Part shown: piece by piece, positions 21,398 to 48,639 of the stretch
Position numbering within the stretch: position 1 is the stretch's first letter
Layout of the letters: every line of letters starts with the position of its first letter
Virus record (IMG/VR): IMGVR_UViG_3300020045_008916
Location: 1-64,000 of that record
DNA: 64,000 nucleotides
Strand: one strand, 5' to 3'
From: a virus
Taxonomy: Duplodnaviria > Caudoviricetes
Notes under the pieces: generated by a model
Database searches by the model: none
What the model was told of the DNA's origin: nothing
What the model saw: the letters and a program-made list of their open reading frames with translations, nothing else
Position numbers and translations under genes: made by a program

Positions 21398-21694
21398 TTA
21401 ACTATTTCCATAATATTGCCTCCTTAGTTTGTCTTTTAATTCGTAAATGATAGTTGCTTCTGGAAATTCTGCAAGCAGTTTCTCTCTTCCCACATTATCG
21501 TACAGGTGATGTATCCTAGGTTGAACCATCAGTATATTTTCTGGTAAAAGCCTAAAGCTTGGATAGGCTCCCTTGCCAAGGATGTGAGCAAAATTATTGA
21601 CATTGAAGGGTATCCACTGTCCTGTAATTTCACAGCACTCGTTCCTCTGTTCGTAGATTTCTTTGAAGAGCTTTAACTCGCCAGTAGCTGTCAT
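21398..21694 (-). CDS. NinG/HNH-like nuclease
   Basis: CEITG...FAHILGKGAYP...ENI...HHLYD. Confidence 0.6.
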   Translation of the reverse strand: MTATGELKLFKEIYEQRNECCEITGQWIPFNVNNFAHILGKGAYPSFRLLPENILMVQPRIHHLYDNVGREKLLAEFPEATIIYELKDKLRRQYYGNS

Positions 21695-22653
21695 GATAAG
21701 TTTTTAAAATACCACTGTCTAACGTAAGGGGCTAATTTTCCCGTAATCTTTTTCCACTCAAGTTTGCTGCTTACCACAACATCCTCTTCTTCTTTCAAGA
21801 TGTCTTTCATGACCCACTGGATAAACTCTCCCGTATTTTTAGGTGAAAGCTCTATCCCGTTCGATGATAGTACTTCTAGGCCTTGTTTAAGCCTGTTCTC
21901 AGTTGCCGCATATTCGATGAACTGTTGAATGTTTTCTAGCTCTTCCGTATCAACTGAAGCTATCTTTGTAACCTTTGAGCTGGAATGCTTTTCACCTTTA
22001 GATTTGAATTTCAAGTTAGGGTCAGAGTCGCAGGTAAAAACAATACCTTCACCAATGCCAGACACTCCAAACGCTTTTGCAAACGGACACTCATCTTCTA
22101 CGGCAATTGTGAGCTCTATCAATTTGTTCTGGATAGCTTCTGGACTGTTAAAATCGATATCTACCTTCCAAGTAGGGAAATTATCTATATGGTAAATGCC
22201 CTGTTCTCTGTCATTAGAGTTAAAATAATCTATCCAAACCCCATCAATCATAGCACCGAAAATAACAAAGACTTTAGGAAGCTCATTAAGTGCAACACCT
22301 TTTTGGATGTTACCGCCACACCATTCTCCAAATATTGCAATATATTCGTTGAATTGCATACCGCTGAATAACCAACCCAATTCTTTACCTGACATTGCTG
22401 TGGCAAAACCTGCATTGTCGGAGCCGACAGAAAGTACTCTCTCTCTCGATTGAAATTCAATCCTGTCCTTATACTTCACAACCGCTGCATTAGTGCCGTG
22501 CAGCTTGACCCTACCAGTAAAACTAAGTGTTGGGTAGGGTGATGTGTTTCTGTAGATTGGACTACCATCAGCATCTTTGCCTTGATAATCATGTTTTGTT
22601 CTGACAGCTCTTACTATATTTCTGAACTGTTCAATTGAAGGATATTTTACCAT
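21691..22653 (-). CDS. RNA ligase, Rnl2 family
   Basis: KLHGTNA (motif I), QSR, FGEWCG, FVIF, GEGIV and FKSKGEKH motifs. Confidence 0.85.
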   Translation of the reverse strand: MVKYPSIEQFRNIVRAVRTKHDYQGKDADGSPIYRNTSPYPTLSFTGRVKLHGTNAAVVKYKDRIEFQSRERVLSVGSDNAGFATAMSGKELGWLFSGMQFNEYIAIFGEWCGGNIQKGVALNELPKVFVIFGAMIDGVWIDYFNSNDREQGIYHIDNFPTWKVDIDFNSPEAIQNKLIELTIAVEDECPFAKAFGVSGIGEGIVFTCDSDPNLKFKSKGEKHSSSKVTKIASVDTEELENIQQFIEYAATENRLKQGLEVLSSNGIELSPKNTGEFIQWVMKDILKEEEDVVVSSKLEWKKITGKLAPYVRQWYFKNLS

Positions 22654-23662: not shown

Positions 23663-24274
23663 TTACTTAACAAAATTAATAAGAAAGTCTAGCAATAGTT
23701 GTTTGTAATTTACAGCAGCACCTAAAACAGCAGCAGCAGCATCAGCAGCATAAGCAGCATAAGCAGCATAAGCAGCATAAGCAGCATAAGCAGCAGCAGC
23801 AGCAGCAGCATCAGCAGCATAAGCAGCATAAGCAGCATAAGCAGCAGCAGCAGCAGCAGCATCAGCAGCATAAGCAGCATAAGCAGCACCAAAAGCAGCA
23901 GCAGCATCAGCAGCATAAGCAGCATCAGCAGCAGCCCTTCTTTTTATCCTCAAAAACTCTAAGTCGACAGTACCATTCAAATAATCTTGTGTCGCTTGTA
24001 TAGCCTCTCTTGGGGCTTTACTTGGATACTTTTTCTCGTAGATAGGTAATACAATCAATGCAACACCAATGGCAAGTAATCTAAACTCTTTATCTTGTAA
24101 TTGGCAATTGTTTCTTACAAACCAAAACTTATCCTTTAAGGAAATATCTAGATTTAAAATCTGTTGGATTGACATCTCTTGTGCCTCGCCAATGATAGTT
24201 TCAGATTTGCCAGCAGTTTCTTTATAGCAGCCACTACCCGCTAAAATTTCTTTTCTTGAAAATAATGTTTTCAT
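23663..24274 (-). CDS. Helical protein with an Ala/Tyr/Asp low-complexity tail (AAYAAYAADAAA)
   Basis: Imm5-like N-terminal helices (LPIYEKKYP...PREAIQA) followed by tandem repeats. Confidence 0.65.
   Translation of the reverse strand: MKTLFSRKEILAGSGCYKETAGKSETIIGEAQEMSIQQILNLDISLKDKFWFVRNNCQLQDKEFRLLAIGVALIVLPIYEKKYPSKAPREAIQATQDYLNGTVDLEFLRIKRRAAADAAYAADAAAAFGAAYAAYAADAAAAAAAYAAYAAYAADAAAAAAAYAAYAAYAAYAAYAADAAAAVLGAAVNYKQLLLDFLINFVK
23722..23938 (-). repeat. GCT/GCTTAT/GCTGAT microsatellite-like coding repeat
   Basis: Forward-strand gcagcataa/gcagca/gcatca units. Confidence 0.9.
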
Positions 24275-28875: not shown

Positions 28876-29355
28876 TTAAATTCTCCCCGATGATAGTACA
28901 TTAATGGTAAAAGCTCTTTGGTTTTCTACAAACTCCCCTGTCTTTTGATGAGAAGCCGCCTGTGCTATAACCTCAATCAAAATCAACTCTCTTTCTAAGT
29001 GCCAGTCCTCAGGCAGTTCCGCACACTGTGCAAACGCTACACGTGCCTCGCTCATGTACTCAAAATCTTCGTTTAATTCTAAGTGCTTAGCATCGTGCCA
29101 AGCTCTGAATAGTATGTTTATATAGGGGTCTCCGAAAATTGTATTATCGCAATGGTCTCCCGATATAGGCATGTATCCGTGTTTTTTGGTGGCTTTTTTG
29201 AACTCTTCAAAGGACATTTCTTCTCCACACTCTACAGTGAATTTTAAATTATTTGTTCTGTTGACAATCCAGTCGTTCAACCTTTGACTGAATGGTGTAC
29301 TAGCTTTTAACCTTAATAGCTGTTCGATTGAGTACCCGTTTTTGTTGTTTTCCAT
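28876..29355 (-). CDS. Conserved phage protein with an N..FRAWHD..H motif (putative metal-binding)
   Basis: NILFRAWHDAKHL...F...E.RVA; gene directly downstream of the twister ribozyme. Confidence 0.65.
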   Translation of the reverse strand: MENNKNGYSIEQLLRLKASTPFSQRLNDWIVNRTNNLKFTVECGEEMSFEEFKKATKKHGYMPISGDHCDNTIFGDPYINILFRAWHDAKHLELNEDFEYMSEARVAFAQCAELPEDWHLERELILIEVIAQAASHQKTGEFVENQRAFTINVLSSGRI

Positions 29356-29365
29356 TTCGTGATTT

Positions 29366-29444
29366 GTTTTAGTACTCTGTGTTTTACAGGCTTGTAACCG
29401 TCTTTGGCCACATTGCTAGGTGCTTTTCAGGTTAAGCACCAAAC
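29366..29444 (-). ncRNA. Twister ribozyme, type P1
   Basis: Minus strand: UAG-CAA-UGUG-GC-CAAAG-ACGG-UUACAAGC-CUGU-AAAA-CACA-GAGUA-CUA; P2, P4, T1 (UAC/GUA) and T2 (GC/GC) all pair; P1 is extended by GUUU/AAAC around an inserted 7-bp hairpin. Confidence 0.85.
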
Positions 29445-29452
29445 CGTCTACT

Positions 29453-29596
29453 CTAGTAGCTTGATAGGTTGAAAATAGTTCCGTTGATATGTGCCACAAC
29501 CAACATAGAGATGATAGTTGCCAAGAACAGGATGCCGCCAACGATAGCGCACTTCTCGTTTATAGGCTTTGACCTAAAATAGTGGATAGCTTTCAT
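29453..29596 (-). CDS. Small membrane protein (not in ORF track)
   Basis: MKAIHYFRSKPINEKCAIVGGILFLATIISMLVVAH... 47 aa, one TM. Confidence 0.55.
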   Translation of the reverse strand: MKAIHYFRSKPINEKCAIVGGILFLATIISMLVVAHINGTIFNLSSY

Positions 29597-29597
29597 T

Positions 29598-29945
29598 TTA
29601 ATCTTTGGTTAGGTCTACTTCAACAAGTTCTTTTATTTCCAACGTAATATGGTTAGCATATAGTTTTCTTTGACCACGCTCCCACAAATCTAAAGCGGTA
29701 GCTCTCGGCTGCTCGTTATGTTCATCCACCAAACACGATGTTTGAATGTTACCGTCTTCAACCTCACAGTTAGCAAAGTCCAAATTAAATCCAACGTGTT
29801 GAAAGTATTTGCCTATTGCATCTTTCCAGTTTTCAGCCTCTACAATTTCATCTAGCGTATAGGCGTTAACACTTTCTAATTGTTCGCCCTCTAAATAGAT
29901 GTCTTCATAAACATCGTGCATGGAAGTTATATAAAATCTTTTCAT
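29598..29945 (-). CDS. Hypothetical protein
   Basis: Likely start MKRFYITS at 29945. Confidence 0.6.
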   Translation of the reverse strand: MKRFYITSMHDVYEDIYLEGEQLESVNAYTLDEIVEAENWKDAIGKYFQHVGFNLDFANCEVEDGNIQTSCLVDEHNEQPRATALDLWERGQRKLYANHITLEIKELVEVDLTKD

Positions 29946-29949
29946 GTTG

Positions 29950-30318
29950 TTAGTTTTTATGTTTAGCAAATATTTCAATTATCTTAACATCTCTTCCACT
30001 CTTAGCGTAGTGGTTACGTCCATCATTAAATTGTACTACATTTTTATTGTAAAATCTCACACGGCTTCTGTTGACTAACAAATCCTTAACCAGTGGGTTT
30101 TCAAAAATGGAAACTTGTACAGCTTCTTTTCTTTTAGCCCTTAATTTTTTCTTAGTACGAATTTCATCTATGTTAATAGTTAGCCTTAATTTTGCTATTT
30201 CTGATTTAATTTCACGGCTTAATTTAAACCGCATATCTAGTTTTGGCAGTCGCCCACATAAGACAAACGCTGTCGATGTTACGGCTTTTATTGCAATTAG
30301 CTTTGCTTTCTTATTCAT
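29950..30318 (-). CDS. Basic hypothetical protein
   Basis: Lys/Arg-rich ORF. Confidence 0.55.
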   Translation of the reverse strand: MNKKAKLIAIKAVTSTAFVLCGRLPKLDMRFKLSREIKSEIAKLRLTINIDEIRTKKKLRAKRKEAVQVSIFENPLVKDLLVNRSRVRFYNKNVVQFNDGRNHYAKSGRDVKIIEIFAKHKN

Positions 30319-30319
30319 G

Positions 30320-30436
30320 TTACAAAAGTTTAGGGTTTTTAATTGAGGGGATAAAATCGTTTTCCATCCATTCGACGAACAACAACCAGCGTTTAGCTTG
30401 GCGTGTTTTATATCTTCTTAGCGTGTTGGTTTTCAT
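30320..30436 (-). CDS. Small hypothetical peptide (not in ORF track)
   Basis: MKTNTLRRYKTRQAKRWLLFVEWMENDFIPSIKNPKLL, fills the gap exactly. Confidence 0.45.
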   Translation of the reverse strand: MKTNTLRRYKTRQAKRWLLFVEWMENDFIPSIKNPKLL

Positions 30437-30438
30437 AT

Positions 30439-30825
30439 TTATAGGAATTTATGTTTAACTCTCTTTTTTGCTTCGCTGTAAAACTCCCCATCTTCATCTT
30501 CCAAGTCCATCAATACTATTTGCAATCCCTCCCGAGTGCCTCCATTATCAGCCCATTCTAATTGGTTAGGAGAATAGTCTTTGAAATACTCGTCTTCAAC
30601 ATCACCAACACCTACAGTTAAAAAGCTTAACAACGCTATAGAACTTTCTAAGCTATCCCACGAATGAAAAATAGAGGGTTTATAATCAGCCCCTTTAAAA
30701 AGCAACTTACCATCTACGTACATTTTATAAGCTACTTTATCACCACAATAGTAAGTGGTTAGGCTAATACCTAAATCTTTGATTTTAGTAGAGGCTAGTT
30801 TTTGCGTAAAATAGTTAGTTTTCAT
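30439..30825 (-). CDS. Hypothetical protein
   Basis: Coupled ORF. Confidence 0.6.
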   Translation of the reverse strand: MKTNYFTQKLASTKIKDLGISLTTYYCGDKVAYKMYVDGKLLFKGADYKPSIFHSWDSLESSIALLSFLTVGVGDVEDEYFKDYSPNQLEWADNGGTREGLQIVLMDLEDEDGEFYSEAKKRVKHKFL

Positions 30826-31037
30826 AGCTTTATGGTTTCTAAATCTCCTCTTAAAATCCTACCTAGATAGGCGGTTTTGCCCTCATCAACTAAAAATAAT
30901 AATCTACCTATCTGCTTTAAGTCTTTTTTGAAACGTCCGTTTAACAAGCCTTCAAATACGCTTGGTGCAAGAATGCTTTTATGAGTTTCTACTAAAGCAA
31001 GTAATTGCTCGTTTGTTGTTAAGATATACTGTTTCAT
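30822..31037 (-). CDS. Hypothetical protein whose start codon lies in hammerhead stem III
   Basis: ATG at 31037-31035 within GAAACAATG. Confidence 0.6.
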   Translation of the reverse strand: MKQYILTTNEQLLALVETHKSILAPSVFEGLLNGRFKKDLKQIGRLLFLVDEGKTAYLGRILRGDLETIKL

Positions 31038-31086
31038 TGTTTCGTTATTTTTAACTCATCAGGCTAGACACACATCTAGCGACAAT
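31036..31086 (-). ncRNA. Hammerhead ribozyme, type III
   Basis: AUUG-UC|GCUAGA-UGUGUG-UCUAGC-CUGAUGA-GUUA-AAAA-UAAC-GAAA-CAAU; complete core and three paired stems; predicted cut between 31081 and 31080. Confidence 0.92.
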
Positions 31087-31540
31087 TTATTTACCCAAAC
31101 TCGTTGCCTAGTCTTTGGGGGCTCGCAATACCTGTACACTTTTATCGGTGTTATGGCTCAAATAGTCCTGTTTATGTGACTAATGCGGATTTGTTTTTGT
31201 TTCGGGTTGGAGTATCTCTTAATTCCCTACATTACGTTTTAAAGTTGCTATGTAATATTTAACCTAATCGCTTTGCGACATTTCACAACGTCCTACTAAC
31301 TTTCGGGATAAAACCCATATTCAATTGGTAACAACTAATTTGTTTGACTTGACATTTAATAAGCCATTGAGTTTATTCTCAATCCACCATTTAGAGGACG
31401 TGGAAAACCTGCATCTTTTAAGTCCCTGCAAGACTTTTTAGAAAATGTAACAGTCGTCTATATAGACCTCTCTTTTGTATAGACTTATCCTTATTTCATG
31501 ATTTAGCCACTGTTACATTCTTGTTGGTTACTTTCAACAC
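31087..31540 (-). ncRNA. Candidate ~455-nt structured non-coding RNA
   Basis: No ORF longer than about 11 codons on the minus strand; own promoter at 31543-31574; hairpins include AAUGUAACAGU/ACUGUUACAUU, AUUGAG/CUCAAU and GACGUU-GUGA-AAUGUC. Confidence 0.5.
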
Positions 31541-31542
31541 TT

Positions 31543-31574
31543 CAAAGGTAAGTATAAGATTTGGTATTTGCAAG
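31543..31574 (-). promoter_or_regulatory. Early-class Bacteroidota promoter
   Basis: CTTG-20 nt-TACCTTTG. Confidence 0.75.
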
Positions 31575-31749
31575 GGTTATTTTAAAATACTTGTATCATT
31601 GCTTTATTTGTGTGCTAGCTTGTAATTTGATAAGTGCTAACCTACTTTAAAGTTTTAGGTTCAAAGCCTCTTAATCATACTGCAAGCGTAACTTACTAAT
31701 TGGCGTGTATTGAACACTAATATATTTTAAACTCTATACAAAGAACTAT

Positions 31750-31814
31750 CTTTTGCTTAACTCATCAGAATAGGCTCAAAAGCTACCTATTGACGGCTGT
31801 TAGACCGTTTCGTT
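31750..31814 (-). ncRNA. Hammerhead ribozyme, type II, with pseudoknot
   Basis: AAC-GAAA-CGG-ucuaacag-CCG-UC|AAUAGG-uagCUUUUGag-CCUAUU-CUGAUGA-GUU-aag-CAAAAG; loop I CUUUUG pairs 6/6 with the 3' tail CAAAAG; predicted cut between 31792 and 31791. Confidence 0.92.
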
Positions 31815-31817
31815 TTT

Positions 31818-32027
31818 TTACTTGTTTGCTTTGTGCATTTCTCTTTCGTGTGTTAAAACATCAGCACACCACCTTACTTTATTCATTAAGGCAGTAGAGT
31901 TACCAAAACCATATTCAAAACTATTACAACCCAAATATATGTCACCTATTACATTTTTTAATTCTGCTGATAATTTAGCGGCTTTTGCAAACTTTGCATC
32001 TAATTGTTTTACTGTAAGTGTTTTCAT
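31818..32027 (-). CDS. Small early protein
   Basis: Own promoter; stop codon lies 3 nt before the type II hammerhead. Confidence 0.65.
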   Translation of the reverse strand: MKTLTVKQLDAKFAKAAKLSAELKNVIGDIYLGCNSFEYGFGNSTALMNKVRWCADVLTHEREMHKANK

Positions 32028-32081
32028 AATGCTAATATTTTTAGTTTTAAGGTGATTTCCTGCTTGTCACTTCCGACATAA

Positions 32082-32113
32082 CAAAGGTGTGAATAATATT
32101 TGATATACACAAT
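32082..32113 (-). promoter_or_regulatory. Early-class promoter
   Basis: ATTG-20 nt-CACCTTTG. Confidence 0.6.
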
Positions 32114-32866
32114 AGCAAGACAAAAATAAATACAATAAAGTTTAATATAATTTGTAAAGTGCTGATAATGAGAGAGATTAATTTTATATAAGATTTAAGA
32201 TAAAGCGGGATAGCTATAAGGTAGTAGGATATTTTGAGCTAAAAGTTGTTAGCTAACCATATCACAGGATTTAAAGGATAAGAGCTAATTAGCTACTACC
32301 TATAGGTGAATAACAAAGAGTGACACAATGACACGTATAAGATGACACGATATGATAGTTTGTCATGCTATAATAAATTGACAGCTAACAGAATATACCG
32401 AGCGGTATAATTAGTGGATGCTAAAATTGTTAGCAAAGGATGGATGTTATCAGCTAACCTACTAATTTAAGAGATAAGTAATATATACTATAAGATAGAT
32501 AACAAGACATAGGAGATATAAGGGTAAACAGGGGAGAGAGCAAGAGAGCGTGTAACGTGTTGCGGGATATCGTGCGGATTAGGTTGTTATTGTGCCTCAG
32601 ATAAGCTGAAAGGGTGATTATAGACTAGATGGATAAGTGAGGGAATATTAAAAGCACAATAGTATTATACCCTCATCTCACAAACATCTATCTAAATCTC
32701 TTTCAAAATACCCTCAAATCAATACTTAGTGTATCAAAGTGCCTCTAATTAGCCTCAAATATCCCAATTAACAAAGTGCCTTTAAAGCATCGTGAATAAA
32801 CTATTCCTCTAGGGCAGAGACTTGAATATCAATCACCCCCTTAGTGTATTTAGAACCGATTGGACG

Positions 32867-32900
32867 TAAAAAAGCCCTTAACAATTGCTTGCAAGGGCTT
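32867..32900 (-). terminator. Intrinsic terminator of the small-membrane-protein operon
   Basis: AAGCCCTT...AAGGGCTT followed by a T run on the minus strand. Confidence 0.7.
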
Positions 32901-41741: not shown

Positions 41742-41754
41742 ACTTTCTTTTTAG

Positions 41755-41827
41755 CGCATTCTCTCGGAGTCGAACCGAGGTACATCAGAGTCTGTCAGTC
41801 TGTGCTCTACCGCTGAGCTAAGAATGC
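41755..41827 (-). tRNA. Atypical tRNA with a non-canonical anticodon loop and no encoded CCA
   Basis: Acceptor GCATTCT/AGAATGC, D-arm GCTC-AGCGGTA-GAGC, T-arm CTCGG-TTCGACT-CCGAG; anticodon arm CAGA-CTGACAGAC-TCTG. Confidence 0.8.
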
Positions 41828-45363: not shown

Positions 45364-48300
45364 TTAGTGGCAACCAGCCCAAGTTTTGTTACAAATCCAT
45401 TCATGGCCGAGGGCTACATTAAGGTTCATCAGATTTCCTGTTTTCTGAATAGCATTAGCTATGGCTCTTGAAATATCGTTTGGCATAGTTATATACCACT
45501 TTTTACCGTGGGATACTGCACTAAGCTGTTCACCCTTCCATTCCTTAGCAAAAGCATTTGCCTCATCTTCTGTTTCAAAAACCTTGAACTCCATAAGCGT
45601 GGGATTAACAGCTAGTTGGTTCTCATCGTGGTACTCAATCATGCTACAACAATCTGGCCTACCTACAAAAGGGTCGGTACAATATCCTTTTTCTTCAAGC
45701 TCTTGCATCAAAAACATGGTTGTATATTTTGCACAGATAACCCCAGCACTCTGGAACAAGGCGTTAAGAATACTGTGCTGGCTCCTAATGTTTATTTTTC
45801 TACCATCGATACTCCTAATGTATTTTTTACCAGTGCTTAACCACTCCTTTTCCATAGCATCCTTAGCTTCTTTCAAAGCAGGTGCCGCTTCCCAAAAACC
45901 ATTATACAGTTCTTCGCCTCTTTCTCTCCCCACCACAAACATCTTCATTATTTTAGCTATTTGAGCACCATACGTTATGGAGTATTTGAAACTTTTAGCA
46001 TCTGACCTGCTGATACTCAGCACTTTAGCATTTACGGAGTGGATGTCATCGGGCTTTTCTGCAATCATAGCTTTTGAATATGCTATTCCATCTGTACCTC
46101 TGTAGCAATAGTGGCCTTCTATTCTAGCCTCCAAGCTACTGAAGTCAAAACCACATTGAAGAAAACCTACTCCTGCTCCAAACAAACTTCGCATTTCTAC
46201 CCCATACGTTGATGTTGGTCTAGCCACATTAGCAACACCTATGTGCTTGTACCTGTGTGTGTTGTGAGTTACAATACCGTTTGAAACATAGCTGTGTGCA
46301 TTTTCAATAGTAAGGTCATAAGTAGACTCTCTTCCTTTATAAATTAGAGATTTTATTTTTGTAGGTTTATAGTCTGGCTTGAAAGTATATTCTAAATATT
46401 GGTCATTCTCAATGTTCCATCTAATACCTCTACGTATTTGGCTGACAGTTTCTCTACAAACGCCATATTTTTCGGCTACTCTTCTATCGTCTCCCTTGTT
46501 ATATCCTTTTTTAAAATACTCCCTAATCTCTTCTATATCTTTTTGCTTTAGTTTTGTATCGGAACCCTGTCTCCTTCGCTTACCAATGCCCCCATGTAAT
46601 TTTATATCAAATTTATTTTCTTTGGAAGTGCCATATTTCAAATTGCTTAGGAAATTATTAAAAGTATTACCATCTAAATGTCTACACTCTAAATCTGACA
46701 AGCCTTGAAAAGTTTCAAGAACAGCTCTTCCGATAGATTTTCTTACTTTTGTTCTTCCATCTCCAACATAGAAATCAAAGGTTACAGGCCTTCCAGAGTG
46801 TTTCTCAGCAACCATCGGACTTAAGTACCTACCACGCTTTGTCCTAATTCTTCCCCAAGAGGATACTTCATACTTATCAAAACTGGGATATTCCTTCCAA
46901 ATTTCTTCCCCTTCATAAGAAAACACCAAATCGTTATCCTGTAATTCTTGGCACGTGACCCAACCCCTCTCAGTTAAAAATGGATGATTACCCGTGCATC
47001 TTAGCGTAGCTAAATTTTCTAGAGTCACTTCCCAAACATCTTTTATACCATTCTCAATTTTATCAATCGCTTTTTCGTATTTTCCAGTGTGTGTTAAAAC
47101 TCTATCTACATTTTCAATCACATCAACAATCCTTTTCAAACCATTGTTTGTAATTATTAACGTATCCTCAGTGACACAGGAAGCACCAATTTCTATTGCT
47201 GGTGTTGGTACTCGGCCATCCTCCTCGCGATAGTTTTTCAGAAATCCCGTATTTGGCACCTCGGTATCCATATCCATCTCCTCAATATCTCCACCTGCTA
47301 TGGTAGACTTTCTGTGGCGATATGTCAGGTAATCTGCAAAGTCTTTAGCAAAGGCAACTTTCTCTCCCAAGGCTATCAGATTAGGACAAAGCTCTTTCTC
47401 CACTCCAACCCGTACGGCAGGAGATGTTGGCACACGAACAGGTTTTCTATCTCCCAATCGCTTTTTGATTTTCATATACACCGTATCTTCATCAGCCTTT
47501 AGAAATTCCAATCGTTGTGCCTTGTATTTTCCTCCCATTGTGTCAGCGTACCACCTATCTAGGGCTTTAATCCTTTTGTCCAGTGGAATGGTCTGTTTCT
47601 TGCTATCCTTCGTTAAATCCCTCTCCTTCCAATCGCTCGGGTTCCAGCCCAGTTCTATTAAATACATTTTTACAGTATCCAAGTCATCAATCTCCGCTGG
47701 TACTTCTGTTTTCAAAGGTTCGGTCAGTGGAAGCGTATAGGTCGTTCCCTCGTATAAAAAGCTTTCACCATTTAAAGTAGCTCCCAAGTTTTCTGCAAAC
47801 CTAAGCATACTCTGGGTATAACTCCCATCTTTTTTGACCTGCTGTACAGGGGGAGTATAGAAACTCTTCTCTGTTTGGGTCAACTTCCTTTTGGGTAGTA
47901 TCGGATTTACCTTGTTCGCAAGTTCGGTAAGCTTATTGTCCAAGTCAATCAGAAGTCTCAATGCAAGCGGCTTATCAAAGAAGAAACCCAAAGTCTCCCG
48001 CCTGATTGCGATATCCGCTAGTTTATGTTCCTGCTTAATGGCCATTCGCCAGCCATCATATCCTGCCAGTTCCTGTGTAAGAGCTTTATATGTAGAAGCT
48101 GTGGATGAGCAATCCTGGATACAGTAGTCTGTCATTAAATCATTGAACTCCCAAAACTCTGCACCTTTAGGGTCACTCTTGTCAATATACCCTGCCTCAA
48201 TGCACTTTTCCCTATAATCTGTCTTGAAATTTCCTGTACGTAAACCCCAAGCCATCAGTCCATGCCCTCCCAATCTATCTGGATTTGACATTCTAGAAAG

Positions 48301-48639
48301 GATAAGCGTATCGAGAAATCGCATTTCCCTTCCAAAACACGTGTCTGATTGTTCCAAATATCCAATAGTATATTCAAGAACTCCAAACAATCTTAGAGCA
48401 GGTAAATCGAATTTTATACCATTGTGAGCTAGAATATAATCATAGGGCTCCAATGCGGCCTTCATCCAGTCTTTTGTGATATCTTCTTTTTCTGCTGAGA
48501 CATATTCACCAGTAGCATAGTCTCGAACTACCACACACCATAATCTTGCTGTATCTTTTAACTTGTAAGGAAAACTCCTATGGTCAATCATTTCTTCAAG
48601 AAGGTTGTTGGACTCTATATCTATGATACCTATTTTCAT
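45364..48639 (-). CDS. polA: Family A DNA polymerase (T7-like, 3'-5' exonuclease) interrupted by an intein
   Basis: IDIE, HNGIKFD and YCIQD exonuclease motifs; DFSSLEARI, KSFKYSITYG and YHDE polymerase motifs. Confidence 0.92.
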   Translation of the reverse strand: MKIGIIDIESNNLLEEMIDHRSFPYKLKDTARLWCVVVRDYATGEYVSAEKEDITKDWMKAALEPYDYILAHNGIKFDLPALRLFGVLEYTIGYLEQSDTCFGREMRFLDTLILSRMSNPDRLGGHGLMAWGLRTGNFKTDYREKCIEAGYIDKSDPKGAEFWEFNDLMTDYCIQDCSSTASTYKALTQELAGYDGWRMAIKQEHKLADIAIRRETLGFFFDKPLALRLLIDLDNKLTELANKVNPILPKRKLTQTEKSFYTPPVQQVKKDGSYTQSMLRFAENLGATLNGESFLYEGTTYTLPLTEPLKTEVPAEIDDLDTVKMYLIELGWNPSDWKERDLTKDSKKQTIPLDKRIKALDRWYADTMGGKYKAQRLEFLKADEDTVYMKIKKRLGDRKPVRVPTSPAVRVGVEKELCPNLIALGEKVAFAKDFADYLTYRHRKSTIAGGDIEEMDMDTEVPNTGFLKNYREEDGRVPTPAIEIGASCVTEDTLIITNNGLKRIVDVIENVDRVLTHTGKYEKAIDKIENGIKDVWEVTLENLATLRCTGNHPFLTERGWVTCQELQDNDLVFSYEGEEIWKEYPSFDKYEVSSWGRIRTKRGRYLSPMVAEKHSGRPVTFDFYVGDGRTKVRKSIGRAVLETFQGLSDLECRHLDGNTFNNFLSNLKYGTSKENKFDIKLHGGIGKRRRQGSDTKLKQKDIEEIREYFKKGYNKGDDRRVAEKYGVCRETVSQIRRGIRWNIENDQYLEYTFKPDYKPTKIKSLIYKGRESTYDLTIENAHSYVSNGIVTHNTHRYKHIGVANVARPTSTYGVEMRSLFGAGVGFLQCGFDFSSLEARIEGHYCYRGTDGIAYSKAMIAEKPDDIHSVNAKVLSISRSDAKSFKYSITYGAQIAKIMKMFVVGRERGEELYNGFWEAAPALKEAKDAMEKEWLSTGKKYIRSIDGRKINIRSQHSILNALFQSAGVICAKYTTMFLMQELEEKGYCTDPFVGRPDCCSMIEYHDENQLAVNPTLMEFKVFETEDEANAFAKEWKGEQLSAVSHGKKWYITMPNDISRAIANAIQKTGNLMNLNVALGHEWICNKTWAGCH
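46261..47178 (-). mobile_element. 306-aa intein with a NUMOD4/HNH homing endonuclease
   Basis: Starts CVTEDT (residue 488), ends YVSNGIVTHN before Thr+1; internal WKEYP..KYEVSSWGRI and CRHLDGNTFNNFLSNLKY. Confidence 0.9.

Follow-up and report, generated by a model that had tools for sequence, protein, structure and literature searches.

Three self-cleaving ribozyme motifs of different architecture at gene boundaries of one minus-strand operon in an uncultured phage

Self-cleaving ribozymes leave 5'-hydroxyl and 2',3'-cyclic phosphate ends where they cut the RNA that carries them. In prophages, multiple hammerhead ribozymes often flank single genes or short gene blocks, with the processing of long phage transcripts as their likely role, and cleavage has been observed for three such arrays in vitro and for one in vivo (Perreault et al., 2011; PMC3088659). 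More generally, bacterial self-cleaving ribozymes frequently lie near each other and near certain phage genes, for a purpose that is still unknown (PMC6765202; PMC4604425), and ribozyme-associated phage gene neighbourhoods led to twister-sister, pistol and hatchet, as far as the work of Weinberg et al. (2015) is recounted in those two papers. For type II hammerheads near phage-like genes, cleavage in vivo has been demonstrated by cyPhyRNA-seq (PMC8782182). The present analysis concerns a locus of this kind, read on the minus strand (32000-29200) of a 64,000-nucleotide (nt) stretch of phage DNA, hereafter the window, which is the first 64 kb of the 74,165-base-pair (bp) IMG/VR virus record IMGVR_UViG_3300020045_008916, estimated to be 96% complete. 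Three ribozymes, namely two hammerheads (one of type II, one of type III) and a minimal type-P1 twister, are embedded there at gene boundaries of one operon, where they probably fold, cut themselves during transcription and yield separate messages.

The layout, with ribozymes at the gene boundaries of a phage operon, has been described since 2011. As in the arrays of Perreault et al. (2011; PMC3088659), several ribozymes lie on one strand of a phage operon and flank genes or short gene blocks, the hammerheads are of mixed topologies, including a type II with a pseudoknot between loop I and the 3' tail, and the same cutting into operon- or gene-length messenger RNAs (mRNAs) has been proposed, together with the same speculation about circles. 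The window differs from those arrays in that one of the three ribozymes is a twister, that it holds a bounded interval of 711 nt without a gene and with an internal promoter, and that none of the three reaches the curated score of its Rfam family. It also resembles the neighbourhoods of Weinberg et al. (2015) in that differing classes occur near the same phage genes, in this case a phrog_7806-like gene encoding 159 amino acids (aa), with a twister or type I hammerheads upstream and type II, type III and pistol ribozymes nearby. The initial annotation, made from the sequence of the window, did not recognise the arrangement and presented it as new, yet PMC3088659 already has prophage ribozyme clusters flanking genes together with the ideas of processing and of circles, and PMC6765202 and PMC4604425 describe hammerheads mixed with twisters in the vicinity of the same phage genes.

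All three motifs possess complete catalytic cores and helices. The initial annotation had named the three classes, placed them on one strand at gene boundaries and given their positions and cut sites, all of which was confirmed by reading of the sequence, by the Rfam models and by a descriptor script; the lengths of 711 nt and 1666 nt that it gave for the fragments between the cuts are also correct on the sequence. The Rfam covariance models matched all three motifs with significant expectation values (E), and it is the scores that fell short, each being below the gathering score of its family. The twister-P1 model (RF03160) matched 29419-29369 (minus strand) with 34.2 bits against a gathering score of 67.2, at E 6.4e-5 in a 3.3-kb search and E 0.0012 when the whole window was compared with all 4227 Rfam families. 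Hammerhead_3 (RF00008) matched 31088-31034 (minus strand) with 36.5 bits (E 4.4e-6; gathering score 48.5), a match that was lost to the filters in a 3.3-kb Rfam search, and Hammerhead_II (RF02276) matched 31815-31750 (minus strand) with 25.6 bits (E 0.0011; gathering score 37), the pseudoknot being unscored by the model. A gathering-mode Rfam scan reported none of the three, and routine annotation would therefore miss all of them. The descriptor script, run on the whole 74-kb genome, found exactly these two hammerheads, and a twister model built here (model R1), run with filters off, found a single twister in the window, with a score of 64.1 bits. No further ribozyme class was found with Rfam at E ≤10 over the locus or ≤1 over the window, and a Hammerhead_1 search of the whole genome returned nothing. 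Minimum-free-energy folding did not return the ribozyme folds of the three motifs, something that is expected for pseudoknotted cores.

The twister is formed by the helices P1 (UAG/CUA), P2 (UGUG/CACA) and P4 (ACGG/CUGU) and the pseudoknots T1 (UAC/GUA) and T2 (GC/GC), and all the conserved loop nucleotides are there, namely the AA after the cut, GCC, AAGC and GAG. P1 has three contiguous pairs, with a possible extension (GUUU/AAAC) across an inserted hairpin at 29440-29420, and the optional helix P3 is cut down to a few bases. Covariation was assessed on four distinct twisters, that of the window and those of three loci that carry homologues of the 159-aa gene (L002, L009 and L030). In this set 92.9% of the cells are paired and 11 of the 22 pairs have changes on both sides; the compensatory changes fall in P1, P2 and P4 and in T1, each of whose three pairs covaries. 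Of 500 shuffles none was as good, and slid controls were 21-42% paired.

Nineteen homologues of the 159-aa product, whose gene lies directly behind the twister, were found and their loci fetched with surroundings; the best prokaryotic match of the family is to Chryseobacterium, at 30% identity. As listed in Table 1, the slot directly upstream of the gene holds a twister in some of these relatives and type I hammerheads in others, and in L028, L032, L037, L018, L030 and L015 ribozymes lie at other places in the fetched locus, no more than about 2 kb from the homologue. Because the upstream slot of one gene has repeatedly been filled by unrelated ribozyme classes, the cut would be the selected feature, and on this comparison of sequences it seems that the cut, not the fold, matters there.

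The protein itself gives a confident AlphaFold model (pLDDT 93.4, pTM 0.88), for which no convincing match was found among solved structures (Foldseek against PDB, E >0.5; VIA-align, best Z 3.8). Zincin-like proteins and YbeY appeared as weak rows of the structure searches and are not taken as evidence. The invariant residues H87-D88-x-x-H91 and E103 recall a zincin-like metal site, which we offer only as a lead.

In the type III hammerhead, stems I and II are closed by loops and stem III is open. The core comprises CUGAUGA (31062-31056), GAAA (31043-31040) and a GUC ending at 31081; stem I has 6 bp (GCUAGA/UCUAGC, loop UGUGUG), stem II has 4 bp (GUUA/UAAC, loop AAAA) and stem III has 5 bp (AUUGU/ACAAU), its 3' strand taking in the first two letters (A and U) of the ATG at 31037. 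Two unrelated viral contigs, L197 (190-250) and L198 (3270-3340, minus strand), share with it the loop I UGUG(U/C)G and the stem-loop II GUUAAAAAUAAC, and their stems I and III differ from those of the window yet stay complementary, in a comparison of three sequences only. By its sequence, the motif belongs with these two in a type III subclass with conserved loops and covarying stems, and the shared loops suggest a conserved loop-loop tertiary contact. Conservation with covariation in relatives was thus found for the twister, in the four-sequence set, and for the type III hammerhead, in L197 and L198.

In the type II hammerhead the invariant core is exact, the triplet is GUC, and stem II is the open one, stems I and III being closed. 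The AAC of stem II (3' strand, 31814-31812), GAAA (31811-31808) and the stem III hairpin (31808-31793) are followed by the stem I hairpin (31791-31769), the core CUGAUGA (31768-31762) and the 5' strand of stem II (GUU, 31761-31759), with 6-7 bp in stem I (7 by the descriptor script), 3 bp in stem II (G-C, U-A, U-A) and 5 bp in stem III. Loop I (CUUUUG, 31782-31777) can pair perfectly with a tail (CAAAAG, 31755-31750) that lies 3 nt past stem II, a 6-bp Watson-Crick match for which our own estimate of chance occurrence is about 0.02. Such a pseudoknot between loop I and the tail is required for fast cleavage by type II hammerheads, even with a stem II of 1 bp (Perreault et al., 2011; PMC3088659), and among 40 type II hammerheads of IMG/VR with the same stem II, a loop I of at least 7 nt pairs with a tail 0-3 nt past stem II. 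An exact-pattern scan for the variant seen here, including its tail, found none, and support for this putative ribozyme rests on its own sequence and on the class-level comparison.

If the motifs fold and self-cleave during transcription, three cuts would result. The cut of the type II hammerhead, 26 nt past the stop codon of the 69-aa open reading frame (ORF), would release the message of the first small gene. That of the type III hammerhead, 43 nt ahead of the ATG at 31037, would strip a long untranslated leader from the next gene and also free its AUG, which is half buried in stem III. The twister cut, 38 nt past the stop of the 47-aa ORF and 59 nt ahead of the ATG at 29355, would part the block of six genes from those that follow, beginning with the 159-aa gene. 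The outcome would be separate messages with short, defined 5'-hydroxyl leaders, the stability and translation of which can differ. We infer that cleavage takes place in vivo and affects expression, and the cutting of a polycistronic transcript is likely to be the most economical role for the three motifs. The proposal of the initial annotation that the early transcript is cut into defined pieces is backed by the occurrence of other ribozyme classes before the same gene family in relatives, and the absence of an obvious intrinsic terminator between the motifs, also part of that annotation, agrees with a pattern scan of the minus strand that found no terminator-like site between 34000 and 27000.

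Several points weigh against this interpretation. All three motifs score below the curated Rfam cut-offs; stem II of the type II hammerhead has only 3 bp; and in the twister the cut is preceded by C instead of the consensus U, and P1 has only three contiguous pairs. The two hammerheads are without syntenic counterparts, because the genes surrounding them have no detected relatives. Furthermore, the promoter between the hammerheads may place them largely on different transcripts, and a benefit of cutting for stability or translation is presumed.

Table 1. Positions of the ribozymes and associated features in the window, and ribozymes near homologues of the 159-aa gene in other loci.
Feature	Position	Strand	Details	Basis
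Terminator-like hairpin	32866-32900	minus	AAGCCCUU, 12-nt loop, AAGGGCUU, U run; closes the upstream minus-strand unit	Read from sequence
69-aa ORF	31818-32027	minus	Stop codon 3 nt ahead of the start of the type II hammerhead	ORF list, sequence
Type II hammerhead	31750-31815	minus	Predicted cut C31792 / A31791	Rfam RF02276, descriptor script, sequence
711-nt interval between hammerhead cuts	31081-31791	minus	Closed in all six frames	
Bacteroidota-type promoter-like element	31543-31573	minus	-33 TTG, 31573-31571; -7 TACCTTTG, 31550-31543; then AAGUGUUGAAAG	
Type III hammerhead	31034-31088	minus	Predicted cut C31081 / G31080	Rfam RF00008, descriptor script
Six tightly packed small ORFs (71, 128, 38, 122, 115, 47 aa)	29453-31037	minus	Between type III hammerhead and twister; coding part of the predicted 1666-nt piece	ORF list
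Minimal type-P1 twister	29366-29421	minus	Predicted cut C29415 / A29414	Rfam RF03160, own model R1, covariation
159-aa gene, phrog_7806-like	28876-29355	minus	Directly behind the twister	PHROG match, E 2.4e-13
Rnl2-like RNA ligase	21691-22653	minus	Ends the minus-strand gene block that holds the ribozymes; no link to them shown	
L002, L003, L009			Twister directly upstream of 159-aa homologue	
L184			Same twister, one ORF inserted ahead of 159-aa homologue	
L053, L011 (= L055)			Two type I hammerheads upstream of 159-aa homologue, flanking one small ORF	
L028 (= L098)	Cuts 2645, 4423, 4812, 5159		Four hammerheads, one of type III and three of type II (the latter 350-390 nt apart)	
L032 (= L110)			Two type II hammerheads	
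L037			One type II hammerhead	
L018			One type I hammerhead	
L030			One twister	
L015	1809-1886		Pistol ribozyme	Above Rfam cut-off

The interval between the two hammerhead cuts consists, in order, of the 3' part of the type II hammerhead, an AT-rich spacer of about 200 nt, the internal promoter and about 460 nt of leader. Each of its six frames contains all three stop codons, and recoding therefore rescues no ORF. The -7 TACCTTTG box of the promoter leads into AAGUGUUGAAAGUAACCAACAAG; the same box and AAGTGT start recur in L011 (position 470) and L002 (9687), and the same promoter-start arrangement is present behind TAnnTTTG boxes in several other phage contigs. A scan of IMG/VR for the promoter and AAGTGT pattern gave 50 matches, approximately the chance estimate, some of them behind TAnnTTTG boxes, and no relatives of the leader. 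Folding energies were no better than those of shuffled sequences, either for the 711 nt (z -0.64) or for the 462 nt from the promoter to the cut of the type III hammerhead (z -1.07). Homologues of the interval were found neither among phage records by blastn nor in the relatives' loci, except around the promoter, and there was no Rfam match at E ≤10 beyond noise. Much of the RNA probably starts inside the interval, and the interval is most likely a regulatory spacer, made up of the trailing half of a hammerhead, a promoter and a long 5' leader, and not one functional RNA. Of the 711-nt ORF-free RNA put forward in the initial annotation, the lack of an ORF in six frames holds, whereas the single RNA unit is not supported, given the internal promoter, the shuffle-like folding and the lack of a homologue.

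Two words or repeats within the interval may be mentioned. A boxA-like word (GTTCTTTG / GUUCUUUG, 31739-31746, minus strand) lies 4 nt past the tail of the type II hammerhead and was set aside as a candidate, being no commoner than chance in the window; across 111 relatives' loci, the word, which is like the boxA of ribosomal RNA operons, showed no clear strand or non-coding enrichment. Words similar to GUUCUUUG are present in the leaders of L002, L009 and L011. Just downstream of the internal promoter (31444-31519, minus strand), an 11-bp inverted repeat (AAUGUAACAGU / ACUGUUACAUU) surrounds a perfect 10-bp palindrome (TCTATATAGA, 31466-31457), which could be an operator or an RNA hairpin.

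Leaders of a comparable plan are found in relatives. In three of them (L002:9687-9925, L009:1000-1239 and L184:216-455) a promoter-like element and the twister before the 159-aa homologue are connected by about 240 nt of conserved leader without a gene, and for the L002/L009 leader RNAalifold gave 56 pairs, 10 of them with compensatory changes, from only two distinct sequences. L011 (430-832) has the promoter type of the window and its AAGUGU start, followed by about 265 non-coding nt, a transfer RNA (tRNA) gene (730-805) and the first gene, the tRNA occupying the slot that is held by a ribozyme in the window and in L002. The order of promoter, untranslated leader, processing element (ribozyme or tRNA) and first gene is common to the window, L002, L009 and L011. 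Large phage RNAs that have been published include ROOL and GOLLD; the leader of the window matches neither of these nor any Rfam family, has no significant predicted structure and is conserved only in its first 25 nt or so. It is doubtful that the RNA of about 460 nt from the promoter to the type III hammerhead is a functional phage RNA with a ribozyme-made 3' end, and that cutting the leader off from the first gene is a conserved strategy of the group, effected by a hammerhead here, by a twister in L002, L009 and L184 and by a tRNA in L011.

The initial annotation had further suggested that the pieces may be joined into circles by RtcB-type ligases, for which no specific support was found. 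Although the end chemistry of ribozyme products is that joined by RtcB (PMC8782182), neither RtcB nor an AAA_33/Pnkp-type kinase domain was found by whole-genome searches of the 96%-complete phage genome, and the 711-nt piece takes its two ends from different hammerheads. Stem I and the core of the type II hammerhead are on its 5' end, and its 3' end has only the 5' strand of stem III of the type III hammerhead; the partner strands needed are on other fragments, and the ends therefore cannot rebuild a hammerhead. In having a segment of hundreds of nt between two hammerhead cuts, with 5'-hydroxyl and 2',3'-cyclic phosphate ends, the locus resembles retrozymes and viroid-like RNAs (PMC5680766; PMC7761336), but in those the same hammerhead is repeated and the ends rebuild the ribozyme, whereas the two hammerheads of the window are unlike in type and in sequence. 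Unlike those RNAs, the locus shows no repeat structure and no evidence of circles. The only ligase found in the phage is the Rnl2-like one of Table 1, which matched Pfam RNA_ligase (E 1e-10) and PHROG 548 'RNA ligase' (E 1.3e-60), with a sub-threshold match to T4_Rnl2_C (20.1 bits, cut-off 27). The Rnl2 family joins a 5'-phosphate to a 3'-hydroxyl, and the phage ligase could therefore not use ribozyme ends without healing; no polynucleotide kinase-phosphatase was detected alongside it in the genome.

These observations bear on a different explanation of the locus, in which the ribozymes serve to release a functional non-coding RNA, either the 711-nt piece or the 462 nt from the promoter to the type III hammerhead, that is stabilised or circularised by an RtcB-type ligase of the host. 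Such an RNA would fit an interval that is closed in all frames within a gene-dense genome, the promoter-proximal leaders of about 240-265 nt that end at a processing element in relatives (a twister in L002, L009 and L184, a tRNA in L011), the conservation and compensatory pairs of the L002/L009 leader, and product ends suited to RtcB (PMC8782182). We nevertheless hold it to be improbable, given folding like that of shuffles, no homologue of the interval beyond the promoter, a phage genome in which neither RtcB nor an AAA_33/Pnkp-type kinase domain was found, and ends that, coming from two different hammerheads, cannot rebuild a ligation-competent one; circular or spliced products have moreover been sought from such clusters and none was seen (Perreault et al., 2011; PMC3088659). 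Somewhat more room, though still little, is left for the ribozymes to cleave without specific benefit to the phage, as harmless boundary elements of mobile cassettes of small accessory genes that are swapped between phages. In L002, L004, L005 and L009 the 159-aa gene follows a long intergenic region, either at once or after a single small ORF, and the block of about 3.5 kb with both hammerheads therefore looks like a lineage-specific insertion; the genes around the hammerheads are without detected relatives, and both the class and the number of ribozymes vary between phages. Mere passengers would not, however, be expected in a slot directly upstream of the same gene that has repeatedly been occupied by ribozymes of unrelated classes, a pattern that argues that the cut is under selection, nor would their structures be maintained by compensatory changes.

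It is very improbable that at least one of the motifs is a resemblance by chance or a copy that has decayed and lost activity. The scores under the Rfam gathering cut-offs, the C before the cut, the reduced P3 and the short P1 of the twister, the short stem II of the type II hammerhead and the minimum-free-energy folds that differ from the ribozyme folds would all be in keeping with this. They are to be set against E-values of 1e-3 to 4e-6 versus all 4227 families, the presence of every invariant core base, covarying relatives for the twister and the type III hammerhead, and the placement of three motifs within 2.5 kb, on one strand and at gene boundaries. Processing of the operon transcript by the three ribozymes remains the probable interpretation.

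The phage is uncultured and its host is probably a Bacteroidota bacterium, as suggested by A-rich leaders without Shine-Dalgarno sequences ahead of the start codons and by promoter boxes of the TAnnTTTG type. The minus-strand block that holds all three motifs is long and made up mostly of small genes without known function. The six ORFs between the type III hammerhead and the twister have no match to a family of known function, and the 71-aa product, compared with 1.84 billion representatives, found only itself. No match was obtained when 29000-32300 was compared by blastn with 50,697 phage records, no close relative was found by single-protein IMG/VR searches with the 128-aa, 685-aa and 159-aa products, and blastn of 29356-32900 against the relatives' loci gave only weak matches, around the promoter.

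Upstream, the minus-strand unit that precedes the operon is closed by the terminator-like hairpin of Table 1, the loop of which is too long for the terminator pattern scan, and the ribozyme-bearing unit must therefore start within the 840-nt intergenic region 32028-32866. This region is AT-rich, holds no ORF of at least 30 aa and contains TTAGCT or its complement seven times against 1.2 expected from the window frequency; its role may be that of an origin or of a regulatory region in which binding sites are repeated. Elsewhere in the window, a family A DNA polymerase of 1091 aa (45364-48639, minus strand) contains an intein, recognised by Intein_splicing (E 1e-13) and matching the NUMOD4 motif as well. 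The single tRNA gene (41754-41827, minus strand) scored 48.7 bits with Rfam and was assigned by ARAGORN to Val, with the anticodon GAC at position 32 and an irregular anticodon loop. A sub-threshold match to isrG, a Salmonella small RNA family, at 23677-23943 (minus strand; 44.9 bits, gathering score 100) lies inside a 203-aa ORF (23663-24274) and is probably shared phage coding sequence, not a small RNA.

The locus changes nothing that is known about mechanism. The purpose of the many self-cleaving ribozymes in phage operons is a question that has stood since 2011, and the window offers a clean example with three different ribozyme architectures. As all three score below the curated Rfam values, such arrays are under-counted by standard annotation. 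The phrog_7806-like gene emerges as a recurrent ribozyme-associated gene, and it is a convenient reporter for the effect of the cut on expression.

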